A DNA stretch of 62,702 nt from an uncultured Candidatus Saccharibacteria bacterium (GCA_964350165.1 CAYGJA010000002.1:1-62702); one strand, 5' to 3'. Shown: positions 56,882 to 62,702, counted from the stretch's first letter. Numbers and translations: made by a program. The notes: a model not told the origin generated them from the letters alone.

Positions 56882-57469
56882 TTATTTGGAAGAGTTGTTG
56901 ATCATGATTTTGTCAACAATTCCATATGCCAGAGCTTCGTCTGCGTCCATCCAATAGTCGCGATCCATGTCTGTCATTATTTTGCTCAGGTCTTGGTTAC
57001 AATTATCAGCAAGCATCTGTGCTAGTTTGTTGCGGGTCTTGATGATTTGTTTTGCTGTAATTTCAATATCACTGGCTTGTCCCTGAGCACCGCCTAGCGG
57101 TTGATGAATCATGACCTCGGCGTTAGGTAGCACAAAACGCTTACCCTTGGCTCCGTGTGATAGAATCATTGCTCCCATGGAGGCAGCCATTCCGACACAT
57201 ACTGTAGAAATATCGGGTTTGACGTGATTCATGGTGTCAATAATGGCCATACCCGCATGAACATGTCCGCCAGGGGAGTTCACATACAGAAAAATGTCTT
57301 TCTTGGGGTCAGAAGATTCTAAAAAGAGTAATTGAGCAACGATCAGGTTGGCTGTATGGTCGTTGACGTCTTCACCCAGGAAAATAATGCGCTCTTTGAG
57401 TAGGCGAGAATAGATATCATAGGCGCGTTCTCCATTTTGTGTCTTTTCGATTACGGTTGGAATAAGCAT
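56882..57469 (-). CDS. clpP: ATP-dependent Clp protease proteolytic subunit
   Basis: [35 protein letters not shown]. Confidence 0.97.
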
Positions 57470-58602: not shown

Positions 58603-58641
58603 AGTGGGTGCAGTGTACCAGGCTGGTGATGCCAGTCAACA

Positions 58642-58667
58642 AAAAACCCGCCAAAAGGCGGGTTTTT
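58642..58667. terminator. Bidirectional terminator-like hairpin
   Basis: AAAAACCCGCC-aaaa-GGCGGGTTTTT. Confidence 0.72.
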
Positions 58668-58691: not shown

Positions 58692-59159
58692 CTAGAAATT
58701 AATATCTTCTAGGATTTTGTCGATTTCTGCGAATTCTTGCTCGAATTCATCGATATTGAGTTGTTCCAATTCGGCGTTAACGTCATTAAGCTCAGCCGCA
58801 ATGTCAGACTCGCTGTTGAGGTTTCGATTGGATGCTTGCTGTTGACCAAAGGCTCCGCTTTGTTGCTCGGTGGTGGTGGTGGCCTGTTGACCATCTACTA
58901 CTGGTGAAGTGCTCGCTCCTTGCTTGGAAAGCATAAAGAAGATAGCACCAGCGGCAATGACAAGCACGATAACAACGACAAGGATAATAATGGCTGCGTT
59001 AGATTTTTTGGCAGGTGCATCAGAGAACATTGGTGCGTTTTGCATGTTGGACATCTGAGGAGCTTGTCCAACTGGAGGCATTCCACCGACTGGTGGTTGG
59101 CCAACATTTGGGTTCGGTGTGTTGGGACTATTGGGTTGTTGTGGATTTTGGAATTCCAT
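58692..59159 (-). CDS. TM-anchored small protein with an acidic C-terminal helix
   Basis: P/Q-rich N-terminus, TM helix, SESDIAAELNDV tail. Confidence 0.65.
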   Translation of the reverse strand: MEFQNPQQPNSPNTPNPNVGQPPVGGMPPVGQAPQMSNMQNAPMFSDAPAKKSNAAIIILVVVIVLVIAAGAIFFMLSKQGASTSPVVDGQQATTTTEQQSGAFGQQQASNRNLNSESDIAAELNDVNAELEQLNIDEFEQEFAEIDKILEDINF

Positions 59160-59184
59160 AATAACGAATGATAGTTAGTAATTT

Positions 59185-60183
59185 TTATTGAGCGCCTTGG
59201 CGTCCAGTTGGGGTAAAGCTAGGATTACCATCGCGTGGGTCATAGGTATCTTGGGTCTTTTGGTAGAACTCAAGCGCCTTTAGAACGTCATAGATAAGTG
59301 CTCGAACAGATTGGCGCACGTTAATAAAGGTTCCTTCGAGGATTGATAGTTCGGTGCGAAGCTTGTCAACCTGGACCTGAACAGCCTTGCTCATGCTTTC
59401 TGGGTCGGTAAATTCACACTCGCTATCGGTGGCGGTGCCATTATCTCGTCCACAATCGACATATTGGTCAATCTGGAGAACGGCTCCGGCTGCAAAAGCC
59501 TCGTCACGTAATTTTCGATAATCAGTTTGGAATGGACCAGTAATCCAGACCTGGTTGGTAGTGTGATTAGTATATCCTGTGCCAACAGTGGTTGGCGCCA
59601 CAGATGAAGGGCCACCAATCCACTCAATCTGAGCTATAAAGTGAGTAGAAGCAGACATGGGTTGATTTGAGGACGGCTGTAAACCATCAATAAGTTCAAC
59701 TCCACTGGCTGGAATTTCGTAGACAATACAGCCGGTTTGGTTGCCGGTACCGTCAAAACAATTAAGGAAGTTTTCGTATTTTTGGACAACGTCAAAAGCA
59801 ACCAACCCTTCTATTCCTGTTGCTTGGGCGGTGGCTGCGTCTACTGCCAAGGCAATATCCAGGTCTCGCAAAACCGTGACAACATTAGTTAGCCGGTCTG
59901 AGATGTTGGTAAAGAGACGCCAAAAAGGAAAAAGAGTAGCCTGAATATCTTGGGAGCTAGCGTTTACCTGAGCCAAAAGTCGGCCCTCATAATCAACTTC
60001 GAGTCGGTCGTCGATTTCCTGAAGACGCTTGGCGTCACGATCTAGGATTTCCACGTTGCGAGCGTTGTTGCGGTTAAGGATTTCTTGGGCGCGAGTAGTA
60101 GCTGACGATTGAGCCGTTGCCTGATAGAGTGGCAAGAACCCAATTGCAACCAACAGCGCCGCTGCAATGTATTTATATTTCAT
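59185..60183 (-). CDS. Secreted hypothetical protein, paralog of 60277-61590
   Basis: Signal peptide; shared motif blocks with the neighbouring ORF. Confidence 0.7.
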   Translation of the reverse strand: MKYKYIAAALLVAIGFLPLYQATAQSSATTRAQEILNRNNARNVEILDRDAKRLQEIDDRLEVDYEGRLLAQVNASSQDIQATLFPFWRLFTNISDRLTNVVTVLRDLDIALAVDAATAQATGIEGLVAFDVVQKYENFLNCFDGTGNQTGCIVYEIPASGVELIDGLQPSSNQPMSASTHFIAQIEWIGGPSSVAPTTVGTGYTNHTTNQVWITGPFQTDYRKLRDEAFAAGAVLQIDQYVDCGRDNGTATDSECEFTDPESMSKAVQVQVDKLRTELSILEGTFINVRQSVRALIYDVLKALEFYQKTQDTYDPRDGNPSFTPTGRQGAQ

Positions 60184-60276
60184 AACAATAAACCTACGTT
60201 GTTAAATCTAATAGTAGACACGAAAAGTATACCACTTTGGCGATAAGGCCCAAATATAAAGTGGGCCCCGTGTGGA

Positions 60277-61590
60277 CTATTGAGTTTTGGCGTGGTACTC
60301 CAGAGCCTCGAGAATATCGTAATTAAGAGCGCGATAAGCTTGGCGGATGATTTCTAATGAAATCCTCATGTCGTTAACTTGTTTTTTGAAGCCTTGAATT
60401 TGCAAATCTACGGCAAAGCGAAAGGGGGAATTATCAACGAATTCACAAACAAGCGGTGAACAATAGTCAATTGAAGGATAGGGTGGCGCTACCCAGGGAG
60501 GAAGTTGGTCGATTGTTTCGGATAGTTTTTCGTATTCTGGGAAGGGGGTGATGTTGAAAGAAGAGATAGGAGGATTAAGGTTAAGAATATCATTGAGCAA
60601 ATCCGTGAGAATGTTGATTGCTTGTTGTGGAAGAAGAATGAGCAGATTGCAAGGAGTGCTAATGGTGACGTCCAGCGGTAAGGCTAGCACATCTTCTATT
60701 TCTAGGGGGGTGTTTGGATTTTGCATTAGGTAATAATTGGGAAAATAGCGAGCCGGAACATTATTCAAGCATTGACTAGCATAACCTGTGACAATCTGGG
60801 TGCTTTGGGGTCCGTAATTAGGAAGAATTACCGGGTTACCATCACTATCGAAAATAATTCGCGCACTGCCATCTGGCAAAAATGGCGGCGGTAAAAAGGG
60901 CAAAAGGGTGATTGGTGGGCTCCAGCCACCATTCCCATCACGACCAAAGCCAATATTAAATCCTCCCGGAATAGAGGCCATGCCGTCGCTAAAGTTTTCC
61001 CAGGCAACACTGAGGAGGCGAGGGGAGAAAATTACTGGCAAACCGTTGTCGGTATTGGTACCGGCTACTCCACTGGCGGGTACGTCGTAGAGCAAACAGC
61101 GGCCGGAGTTTTGGTTGAGCCAGCCTGATCCAAAGTTATTGCCATTGGGGTAGTGCCTTCCGTCGAGACAATTCTGGGCGTTGTAGAATTTGTCCTGAAC
61201 ATCAAAAGGGACAACTCCGTCGGGTAGGTTGCCGGCTGGAGAAGAAAGGGCAATGCCACGACTGCGCATGACATTGTAAATCAGGTTGTACATGCGCATT
61301 TCTACGTTGGCCAGACGGCGAACAACTGGCAAAAAAGCAGCGTAGAGGTCTATGGAATAAGCGTCTATCTGAGGGATAACTCGGGTATAGTAGTGTTCAC
61401 GAAAGCGTTCATTGATTTCTTTCATGCGAGCCAGCTCTCGAGCAGTTGTTTCGACCGTGCGGGCGTTCTGGCGTTCGGTTTTGATAGCAGCTGCATCGGC
61501 CGCGGTCCTGTTTTGGGCCTGAGCAAAAGCAGGCAAAAAAGTAACTGCTAATAGTGTCAGAACAAGAAAGCATGATAATTGTTTTTTCAT
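60277..61590 (-). CDS. Secreted hypothetical protein, paralog of 59185-60183
   Basis: Signal peptide (AQA); shared motif blocks; TACAAT 7 nt before ATG. Confidence 0.7.
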   Translation of the reverse strand: MKKQLSCFLVLTLLAVTFLPAFAQAQNRTAADAAAIKTERQNARTVETTARELARMKEINERFREHYYTRVIPQIDAYSIDLYAAFLPVVRRLANVEMRMYNLIYNVMRSRGIALSSPAGNLPDGVVPFDVQDKFYNAQNCLDGRHYPNGNNFGSGWLNQNSGRCLLYDVPASGVAGTNTDNGLPVIFSPRLLSVAWENFSDGMASIPGGFNIGFGRDGNGGWSPPITLLPFLPPPFLPDGSARIIFDSDGNPVILPNYGPQSTQIVTGYASQCLNNVPARYFPNYYLMQNPNTPLEIEDVLALPLDVTISTPCNLLILLPQQAINILTDLLNDILNLNPPISSFNITPFPEYEKLSETIDQLPPWVAPPYPSIDYCSPLVCEFVDNSPFRFAVDLQIQGFKKQVNDMRISLEIIRQAYRALNYDILEALEYHAKTQ

Positions 61591-61618
61591 TATGTTGATT
61601 GTACCAAAACTTTTGCAT

Positions 61619-61650
61619 ACAAAAACCCAGCCGAATGGCTGGGTTTTTGT
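61619..61650. terminator. Bidirectional terminator-like hairpin
   Basis: ACAAAAACCCAGCC-gaat-GGCTGGGTTTTTGT, 14-bp perfect stem. Confidence 0.75.
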
Positions 61651-61671
61651 TGAGACAATTAGAACCGGTTA

Positions 61672-61980
61672 TTATTGGTTCAGTTCGGCTTCGAGGGCCT
61701 GTAGTTCTGCATCGAGCTGGCTTAGATCTGCAGCTGCATCAAGGTCTGCCTCAATGTCTACGACTTCGGTAGAGGTGCTGAGGGCGGCTTCGTTGGTAGC
61801 GGTTTCGTTTGCAACTTCGCTTTCGGTTGGAAGCATATCGATGTTCTCTACTAGAGCGTCATCGGCCTGGTTGACGTTCTCTTTTTGTGACAAGAGCACA
61901 CCTCCGACGAGGAGAATAATTATGACGACAATTGCGCCAATAATAGCTCCGGTTGATTTTCCTTCTTGATTTGGTTTCAT
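61672..61980 (-). CDS. TM-anchored small protein with an acidic C-terminal helix
   Basis: TM helix, then STSTEVVDIEADLD...LEAELNQ. Confidence 0.65.
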   Translation of the reverse strand: MKPNQEGKSTGAIIGAIVVIIILLVGGVLLSQKENVNQADDALVENIDMLPTESEVANETATNEAALSTSTEVVDIEADLDAAADLSQLDAELQALEAELNQ

Positions 61981-62013
61981 GTTTTTTACAAATGAGTAAG
62001 GTTAGTAATTTAG

Positions 62014-62700
62014 TTATTCGGTCTCTACTTCAGCTTCGGTGGTCGTTGCCACTGATGTGCGGACTTCTTTGATAGCCTTGATGGCTGTGCGGATAGAAGA
62101 ACCAGCACTTTTTAGGTTTTCATGTGCGGAACGCATAAGTTCGCGCAAGTTTTCCTTTTGGTTGTTGAGTTCTTCGGCAAAAGTATCACTGCTTACATCA
62201 AATTCTGACCAGGTGCTAACAAGTGCTTTGATGGCTGTAATGTCGGTTTCTGCAGATACCAAAAAAGTAGATGCATTGTCTAGTTCGATTTGGGCGACGG
62301 ACATGTCCTCTCCTTTTGCGGTCATGTTATCAATGGCTGTTTGAGTTCGTCCTTCGATTTGGGTGATTTTTCGGACGCCGCTTTCGAGACGGAGCACAAT
62401 GTTGTTGGACAATCTTGCGACTACGTCACCTCGTTTTTTGCGTACGATTTCTTGTCGTTCTTCTCGTTTTTCTTCCATGTCATCACGCATTTCTTCGCGA
62501 TCTTCTTTCATCTCATCACGCATTTCGGAGCGAGCTTCGCTGTCGGTTTCGCTATAAAGCTCGGCACGTTTTTCTTCCATGTTTTCCTGATGACTTTCTC
62601 TTGTTTCTTTCATCTCGTCACGGATTTCGGTCATGGCTTCACGAGTATCTTCTCGTTTTTCTTCCATGTCATCACGCATTTCTTCGCGATCTTCTTTCAT
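62014..62700 (-). CDS. Charged coiled-coil/helical-bundle protein, 5' end outside window
   Basis: E/R/M-rich repeats followed by amphipathic helices; ORF open at the window edge. Confidence 0.65.
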   Translation of the reverse strand: MKEDREEMRDDMEEKREDTREAMTEIRDEMKETRESHQENMEEKRAELYSETDSEARSEMRDEMKEDREEMRDDMEEKREERQEIVRKKRGDVVARLSNNIVLRLESGVRKITQIEGRTQTAIDNMTAKGEDMSVAQIELDNASTFLVSAETDITAIKALVSTWSEFDVSSDTFAEELNNQKENLRELMRSAHENLKSAGSSIRTAIKAIKEVRTSVATTTEAEVETE

Positions 62701-62702
62701 CT
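62461..62702. repeat. 53-bp perfect direct repeat (62461-62513 and 62650-62702), period 189 nt
   Basis: ttctcgtttttcttccatgtcatcacgcatttcttcgcgatcttctttcatct occurs twice; encodes MKEDREEMRDDMEEKRE. Confidence 0.9.

Follow-up and report, generated by a model that had tools for sequence, protein, structure and literature searches.

The locus considered here raises the question of what is encoded by five adjacent genes, called G1 to G5 below, that occupy the slot between ppa and tig in the genome of an uncultured member of the Paceibacteria (Patescibacteria). The window, that is, the whole stretch of 62,702 nucleotides (nt) that was analysed, makes up the initial 62.7 kb of a contig of 212 kb (CAYGJA010000002.1); the genome measures 817 kb at 99.7% completeness, and the relatives of its trigger factor, at most 44% identical, all came from metagenome-assembled genomes of Paceibacteria- or Parcubacteria-type Patescibacteria. 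All five genes lie on the minus strand and are transcribed in the order G1, G2, G3, G4, G5; the coordinates of their open reading frames (ORFs), proposed in a preliminary description of this DNA, were confirmed in each case. Overall, what that description observed holds after several corrections, and its interpretation, in which a membrane-tethered acidic helix holds a helical scaffold with a variable loop for host recognition or phage evasion, is supported in part. The answer that we favor, with moderate confidence, is that the locus represents a lineage-specific expansion of an old Patescibacteria envelope gene pair, in which small membrane proteins would tether large secreted ones and G4 would be the exposed, exchangeable subunit.

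Paralogy, secretion and rarity of G3 and G4

Judged by their sequences, G3 and G4 are true paralogs. In BLASTP, the N-terminal parts of the two proteins align with 34% identity over 167 amino acids (aa; E 7e-25) and the C-terminal parts with 38% identity over 56 aa (E 3e-10), and the profile–profile comparison of the two ortholog sets connects them with 100% probability (E 5e-43) over 319 columns, which is the whole length. Every motif that the preliminary description had quoted as an ordered block common to both proteins was found, and the alignments proposed there as a check are the significant ones just given. The same description had spoken of an array of paralogs with unrelated central inserts of different length and four conserved cysteines. 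The cysteines hold across the family, as C141, C165, C377, and C382 (G3 numbering) are invariant in 17/17 sequences, and two additional cysteines conserved in the G3 orthologs bring the total there to six, against four in G4. The array, however, consists of two members only, with no more copies in the genome, and a sequence-pattern scan of genome contigs for G3/G4 relatives found nothing. The centers do differ in length (~85 aa in G4 versus ~196 aa in G3), but they are not unrelated, since the profile alignment spans them and the central residues G183, G269, and Y270 are invariant across the family alignment.

The features that define the family are found in both proteins: a signal peptide, a long N-terminal helix, the Cys block FDV..K..N...C..G / C.[VL]Y..PA, the motif CEF[TV]D, a C-terminal helix of the form RQ..RA...D[VI]..A, and a position between two small genes upstream of tig. 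Within this frame, G3 comprises the signal peptide, a helix at residues 19-110, the Cys block, a Pro-rich conserved center bearing the motifs GGWSPP..LPPPFLPDG, QIVTGYASQC..VPARYFP, and NxxPFPEY, and a helix at residues 388-436. G4 comprises the signal peptide, a helix at residues 17-107, the Cys block, a variable center, a helix at residues 261-311, and the tail YDPRDGNPSFTPTGRQGAQ. This tail (window 59185-59250) is non-helical, follows the pattern YDP..G...[FY].P..RQG..., and ends all G4 orthologs of both head types described below (that of the relative L092 being cut short); it was found neither in G3 nor in any other ORF of the genome and could serve in processing, sorting, or docking. The C-terminal helix of G4 additionally shares N[IV]RQSV[RK].L..D and a flanking pattern with a ~58-aa helical unit that occurs in three to five repeats in the phage tail proteins P0013-P0017 (1010-2447 aa; Prophage_tail/CBM_4_9).

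The signal peptides of G3 and G4 are classical N-terminal Sec signal peptides, and the genome encodes VKOR together with three DsbA-like proteins. Because of these signal peptides, the conserved cysteine pairs, and the VKOR and DsbA-like genes, G3 and G4 are almost certainly extracytoplasmic, and the presence of the same oxidation genes makes extracytoplasmic disulfides in both proteins plausible. AlphaFold2 (AF2) models are consistent with the architecture given above. The G3 model, built from 17 sequences, reached a predicted local distance difference test score (pLDDT) of 69 and a predicted template-modeling score of 0.58, with both helices present, confident regions at residues 100-145 and in the C-terminal helix, and a mixed center, and the G4 model, built from five sequences (pLDDT 56), likewise shows both helices, here around a low-confidence center. 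As modeled, the N-terminal helix is ~90 residues long and the C-terminal one ~50, so that, if the two were paired, ~40 residues of the N-terminal helix would lack a partner within the protein and would offer a candidate docking site for a second chain.

The preliminary description had called the system undescribed, and the database searches bear this out. When the five proteins and the family alignments were compared with Pfam, NCBIfam, PHROGs, and PDB sequences, nothing passed the threshold; a literature search returned nothing relevant; and Foldseek gave no meaningful match in PDB or BFVD for the low-to-moderate-confidence G3 and G4 models, with nothing below E 0.6 in PDB. When 1.8 billion representative proteins were scanned in full with HMMER, the G3/G4 profile produced 15 matches, ~10 of them real and five of them phage coiled-coil proteins, and the remaining 54 genomes of this taxonomic family gave no match. 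The order G1-G2-G3-G4-G5-tig is fixed on every contig that has a member, across nine species-level lineages (the window, L005-7, L008/9, L010, L092, L093, L094, L095/96, and L097), and the G3/G4/G5 arrangement is confined to one genus. G3 and G4 are orphan families without a described relative, although of a familiar general kind, namely lineage-specific envelope or surface proteins of which one evolves fast.

Two accounts of the origin and activity of this family were weighed against these results. According to the first, G3 and G4 derive from a captured phage tail or receptor-binding protein, for which speaks the weak match of the family profile to a ~58-aa phage-tail helical repeat, with whole-protein E-values between 1.6e-8 and 4.8e-4. 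Single repeats, however, score just 8-12 bits and the significance arises from summing them, neither a PHROG match nor a BFVD fold match was obtained, and the locus has no phage genes nearby and a strict chromosomal synteny; such an origin appears extremely improbable. The second account holds that G3, G4, and perhaps G1 are secreted multicomponent alpha-helical pore-forming toxins or effectors of the ClyA, Hbl/Nhe, or YaxAB type, whose assembly would take place on a host membrane, with the small proteins either unrelated or serving as immunity proteins or chaperones. The resemblance lies in adjacent secreted helical paralogs of 330-440 aa with a non-helical head between long helices, to which are added a moderately hydrophobic stretch in the G3 head (Kyte-Doolittle 1.2-1.7) and a lifestyle in which the organism, like Patescibacteria in general, probably lives on other cells. 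Charged residues fall within that stretch, though, and some orthologs show it weakly; G3 and G4 depart from these toxins in having no clear hydrophobic beta-tongue or hairpin, in their conserved cysteines, and in their membrane partner. No Bacillus_HBL/ClyA-type Pfam match was obtained for G3, G4, or the 17 family members, even at E 0.1-1, and, for models of pLDDT 56 and 69, the Foldseek searches of PDB, where those toxins are included, gave no match below E 0.6. Conserved disulfides and a membrane-anchored partner fit a cell-bound complex better, and we regard the toxin account as very unlikely.

Central variability and allele exchange in G4

The preliminary description had assigned both proteins a variable loop displayed on a helical scaffold. 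This stands for G4, the center of which is 35% identical among nine orthologs, with 26% gapped positions and lengths of 85-144 aa, as opposed to 51-53% identity in its helices. It does not stand for G3, where the center (196 aa, ranging from 188 to 201 aa in eight orthologs) is 50% identical and contains long invariant motifs while the flanking helices are 53-55% identical; a center conserved like its scaffold is the very pattern that the description itself had set against its proposal.

When the window genome is set beside L005, the relative closest to it, G4 stands apart from its neighbors. Amino-acid identity is 96% for NusA, 97% for PPase, 88% for RNase Y, and 86% for Tig, and within the cluster 81% for G5, 76% for G2, and 75% for G3, whereas G4 reaches 52%, no higher than its identity to distant relatives. 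The nucleotide alignment of the two genomes is lost 104 nt inside G4 and returns 18 nt ahead of the stop codon. The segment in between is bordered on both sides by DNA that aligns at 71-80%, and synonymous sites are saturated at these distances (flank identity 71-84%). At the protein level, the first 35 residues of G4 are identical and the remainder drops to 30-40% identity. The head of the window's G4 resembles that of L010 (68-85% in windows along the alignment), and the head of the L005 protein resembles that of L009 (58-82%).

The trees point in the same direction. The window genome and L005 are sisters in the G3 tree (support 100/100) and in the G5 tree (96/96), and the G4 tree groups L005 with another clade. 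In approximately unbiased (AU) tests, the grouping of the window genome with L005 was rejected on the G4 data (p 1e-4), and the G4 grouping was rejected on the G3 data (p 6e-4). The terminal branches of G4 are additionally about twice (~2x) as long as those of G3 or G5. This pattern is most simply read as the acquisition, in the L005 lineage, of a foreign allele in place of the native mature part of G4; the conserved signal-peptide region and the region of the G4 end and G5 would have been the recombination anchors.

In these respects, G4 resembles flagellin, the streptococcal M-like proteins, and the Vsp/Vlp proteins of Borrelia, which also combine conserved end helices with a variable, indel-rich center, and in which allele types cross species boundaries with a divergence bounded by the gene. 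G3 and G4 nevertheless differ from all of these in that neither sequence nor fold matches them, the export signal is a Sec signal peptide and not a flagellar one, LPXTG or lipobox anchors are absent, the head has disulfide-type cysteines, and the proteins are always paired with a small bitopic protein. The Pfam families Flagellin_N and Flagellin_C gave no match for G3 or G4, and flagellin chains surfaced in Foldseek only at E 2-5 and a template-modeling score of ~0.15, for a low-confidence model.

The old gene pair and the organization of the locus

G2 and G5 had been described as small proteins of matching design. Pairwise BLASTP found no similarity between them, but iterated profile searches place them in one family, as each recovers the orthologs of the other (8.6e-21 and 7.7e-22), and the profile of this small family finds exactly two genes in the genome, G2 (3.5e-26) and G5 (1.7e-32). 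The common design consists of a variable, often P/Q/N-rich cytoplasmic N-terminus, the sequence K-S-x-G-x-I-I-G leading into the transmembrane (TM) segment, a low-complexity spacer, and, at the C-terminus, an acidic amphipathic helix whose net charge is -11 to -17 across 40 residues; conservation is limited to the last 30-40 residues. In G2, the N-terminus is short, the TM segment spans residues 12-32, and the helix ends in ...DIEADLDAAADLSQLDAELQALEAELNQ; in G5, the N-terminus is P/Q-rich, the TM segment spans residues 57-75, and the helix ends in ...ELNDVNAELEQLNIDEFEQEFAEIDKILEDINF. The helix signature of the G2 type, DIEADLD....DLS.LDAELEALEAEL, and that of the G5 type, EL.D[VI]N.E...L.I[DE].F.E....EID.IL.DIN, are each kept in all species, which fits partner-specific docking peptides.

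FtsB, FtsL, and DivIC as well as the Rz i-spanins share with G2 and G5 the size (100-155 aa), a single TM segment, an N-terminus inside the cell, and an amphipathic C-terminal helix outside, and the helix of G2 and G5 probably pairs with a partner. In contrast to FtsB, FtsL, and DivIC, in which a leucine zipper directly follows the TM segment, that helix is almost purely acidic and is separated from the TM segment by 30-60 aa of unstructured spacer, which places it at the extreme C-terminus, and, set against this whole group, no lysis or division genes lie alongside and the partner is a secreted helical protein. The Pfam profiles of DivIC and FtsL did not match G2, G5, or their relatives. An assignment of G5 as a phage Rz i-spanin was rejected, as the PHROG matches were weak (E 0.007-0.14) and no lysis gene occurs among its neighbors, which are tig, clpP, and G4.

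The partner of G2 is G1, of which the window contains the C-terminal part. The preliminary description had taken this protein to be truncated and similar in its amphipathic helices to G3 and G4; it is indeed helical and cut by the window end, but it belongs to a different family with at most a remote relation to theirs. Inspection of the sequence beyond the window, which had also been suggested, located the true start of G1 with the signal peptide MKPTTIILAAILLMGTPAFAQD just past the window, on the far side of a 100-N scaffold gap (C2:62703-62802). The gap sits in the 33-nt (11-aa, EMRDDMEEKRE-type) acidic tandem repeat of G1 (window 62449-62702), so that the repeat number and the length of G1 in the assembly may differ from the true ones. 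In the family alignment, this repeat region is the least conserved part, and the conserved part is a helical domain of ~150 aa followed by a Thr-rich tail; the window's G1 matches the profile of that domain at 1.7e-35. A short match connects G3/G4 with the G1 family at the end of the N-terminal helix (hhalign; 43-45 columns, 82-84% probability, E ~1e-5, compared with 1-3% probability in reversed-sequence controls), and G3 and G4 may have arisen from a duplicate of G1.

The pair formed by a G1-family gene and a small-family gene extends far beyond this genus. In ~40 other Paceibacteria, only two genes, on the same strand and one from each family, stand between ppa and tig, and the G1-family proteins encoded there are secreted, helical, 215-310 aa long, and free of cysteines. 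The small-family gene lies directly 3' of the G1-family gene in 35 of the 37 Paceibacteria loci and in all four genomes examined from other classes (4/4). The G1 family occurs in 96/251 genomes and 74/190 genera of the class and in 32/201 genomes sampled across the phylum. G1 and G2 of the window conform to the same pair, a secreted protein matching the G1 profile and then a same-strand TM protein of the small family. Neither family has a Pfam or NCBIfam name, and the sources list their members as "hypothetical protein" only. Compared with this widespread arrangement, and again on sequence grounds, the genus studied here carries the small gene in duplicate and has gained two new large genes, which lie between its copies.

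In the other classes, the G1-like proteins are 400-440 aa long and have an extra Gly-rich beta-type C-terminal domain of ~120 aa (...GNGxIKG...GGxxxIxD...; L101 1887-3113, L102 1969-3207, L103 1859-3064, L104 1921-3237), and their small TM partners end in an acidic ...LD....IDL.[LF] peptide; neither the G1-like protein nor the small partner belongs to a Pfam family. The idea of natural fusions of anchor and cargo found no support in these classes, where the genes are separate though adjacent.

G1 itself could suggest a lipid- or membrane-binding module, in which it would bind or shuttle host lipids like an exchangeable apolipoprotein (PF01442) with G3 and G4 as accessories. It does share charged amphipathic helices and an 11-residue periodicity with such proteins, of which the 33-nt repeat is the expression in the gene; six of the 25 G1-family members gave weak Apolipoprotein A1/A4/E matches (best E 6.7e-6); and Patescibacteria generally lack lipid synthesis. 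These matches nonetheless fall far short of the 90 bits that Pfam requires and are of the sort that charged coiled-coil composition typically yields, the periodic region is the part of G1 that varies most, the conserved part is the separate helical domain with its tail, and nothing ties G3 or G4 to lipids. We therefore find a role in lipid binding highly improbable, and the direct assignment of the window fragment of G1 to Apolipoprotein A1/A4/E, at 14.5 bits against the gathering threshold, was rejected.

The coordinates of the genes and of the transcription signals are collected in Table 1. Two strong intrinsic terminators were found by reading and folding the intergenic regions, whereas a generic promoter/terminator scanner missed both and returned promoter counts at chance level. 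The terminator after G2 folds at -24 kcal/mol (z -7.8) and the one after G5 at -19.1 kcal/mol (z -4.5), and in neither case did any of 200 shuffles fold as well (0/200); the hairpin after G3 is weak (z -1.9) and lacks a U-tract. Upstream of G4, the core TG.TATA.T of the extended -10 box is invariant in the 7/7 species aligned, with G/A at the third base and C/A at the eighth, and this box is the sole match in 18 kb, set in a spacer that is not conserved. The G4 leader of ~40 nt is near-identical between the window and L005. The position of TGGTACAAT so close to the start codon of G3 suggests a leaderless or nearly leaderless mRNA, and the tig gene is preceded by a promoter-like site, TTGACT-16-TGGTACACT (window 58603-58639), 9 nt from its start. 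From these signals, the likely transcription units are G1-G2 and G3(-G4-G5) with an internal promoter for G4-G5, which amounts to two modules of large plus small genes. The repeated module of the preliminary description is in this way borne out, both by the adjacency of the pair in Paceibacteria and in other classes and by the terminators that close the units after G2 and G5.

Table 1. Genes and transcription signals of the G1–G5 locus, in order of transcription
Feature	Position in window	Strand	Description
G1, C-terminal part (228 aa)	62014-62702	minus	secreted acidic helical protein; start outside window, C2:62954
G2 (102 aa)	61672-61980	minus	single-pass membrane protein, usual partner gene of G1
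Intrinsic terminator after G2	61621-61649	minus	14-bp stem and U-tract
Extended -10-like box TGGTACAAT	61598-61606	minus	7 nt before G3 start codon; read from sequence
G3 (437 aa), long paralog	60277-61590	minus	secreted
Extended -10 box TGGTATACT	60226-60234	minus	upstream of G4
G4 (332 aa), short paralog	59185-60183	minus	secreted
G4 exchange segment	59203-60079	minus	codon 36 to 6 codons before stop; no nucleotide match to closest relative
G5 (155 aa)	58692-59159	minus	single-pass membrane protein, divergent duplicate of G2 family
Intrinsic terminator after G5	58641-58667	minus	followed by promoter-like site for tig

Further out, the cluster is flanked by ppa and nusA on the 5' side of G1 and by tig, clpP, rny, and hup on the 3' side of G5; the gap between G1 and G2 measures 33 nt. 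The ClpP of the window (clpP, 56882-57469) is 69-74% identical to those of all relatives, including that of the closest one, L005 (70%), and the ClpP proteins of L005, L094, and L095 are 82-90% identical among themselves, which suggests a discordant clpP history in this neighborhood, by replacement or through a different paralog. In some metagenomic relatives, ORFs of the locus are split, namely G3 in L096 (6592-7886; 302 + 120 aa), G4 in L010 (4259-5286; 61 + 281 aa), and tig in L008 (1942-3042; 198 + 130 aa); these may be assembly or sequencing errors or real disruptions in some populations.

A proposed tethered envelope complex weighed against a housekeeping role

The expansion that we favor would have started from an ancestral pair of a Sec-secreted, acidic, mostly helical protein, G1, and a small bitopic protein whose acidic amphipathic helix lies outside the cell. 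The module was duplicated in one genus, with the small gene giving rise to G2, which stayed with G1, and to G5; between the small-gene copies stand the paralogs G3 and G4, which would be disulfide-containing ectoproteins of helix-head-helix form. The small protein, its N-terminus inside the cell, would capture a secreted partner of helical build with its acidic C-terminal helix and retain it at the outer face of the membrane, G2 docking G1, and G5 docking G4 and perhaps G3. G3 would then be a conserved structural or co-receptor subunit, and G4 the exposed, fast-evolving, selected one, the mature part of which can pass from one species to another, the behavior anticipated of a protein in contact with host cells or under attack by phage. 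A more specific version, which we advance as tentative, posits a phylum-wide two-part surface display in which the acidic helix docks a secreted helical protein; in this genus, G5 would anchor a disulfide-bonded G3–G4 heterocomplex, and the G4 head would act as an exchangeable specificity cassette for host attachment or escape from phage through its receptor, under its own conserved promoter.

Several observations weigh against this proposal. The helix-head-helix picture rests mainly on secondary structure, given models with pLDDT 56 and 69. All five proteins are net acidic and the N-terminal helices of G3 and G4 are not basic, so that a simple charge attraction fails to explain how an acidic helix would hold the large protein; charge complementarity between the acidic helices and these N-terminal helices was discarded as unsupported for the same reason. 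In L005, the mature G4 is the replaced one and G5 is native, that is, G5 did not travel with the allele, and any G5–G4 interface must consequently lie in parts common to both allele types. The homology between G1 and G3/G4 spans only ~45 columns, and a smaller alignment gave a probability of 32%. The groups compared in the AU tests were named only after the trees had been seen. Finally, the housekeeping genes on either side fit a basic role in the envelope equally well as a host-facing one.

This last point leads to the alternative that the cluster belongs to the housekeeping architecture of the envelope (wall, S-layer, or division), with no contact to host or phage, and that the divergence of G4 reflects relaxed constraint and occasional recombination. 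The pair is indeed phylum-wide and sits among nusA, ppa, tig, clpP, and rny, the acidic character of all the proteins and the Thr/Ser-rich tails of the G1 relatives, typical of wall-spanning or glycosylated regions, agree with such a setting, and the G3 center is under ordinary purifying selection. A restriction of G3, G4, and G5 to one genus would however be unusual for a core structural part, and the divergence of G4, sharply bounded by the gene and with two head types that cross species, looks like selected allele exchange and not like drift. G4 moreover retains its four cysteines, helices, tail, and conserved private promoter, which also speaks against this alternative, and we judge a pure housekeeping role unlikely.

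Patescibacteria account for a large part of bacterial diversity and live, for the most part, attached to other cells, and, to our knowledge, almost none of their surface proteins has a known role. Should the tethering of secreted proteins by the small ones prove wrong, the locus would simply contribute two further orphan proteins of the envelope. A lead of broader reach is offered by the unannotated, phylum-wide gene pair of a secreted helical protein and an acidic-tail anchor, which extends well beyond this genus, and, in the genus-specific derivative, the fast-evolving head, interspecies allele exchange, and private promoter of G4 resemble those of an exposed specificity determinant. If small proteins do anchor such cargo, the pair would represent a basic way in which these cells fix proteins to their surface, and G4 would be a candidate for contact with host or phage in a lineage for which no genetic system exists.

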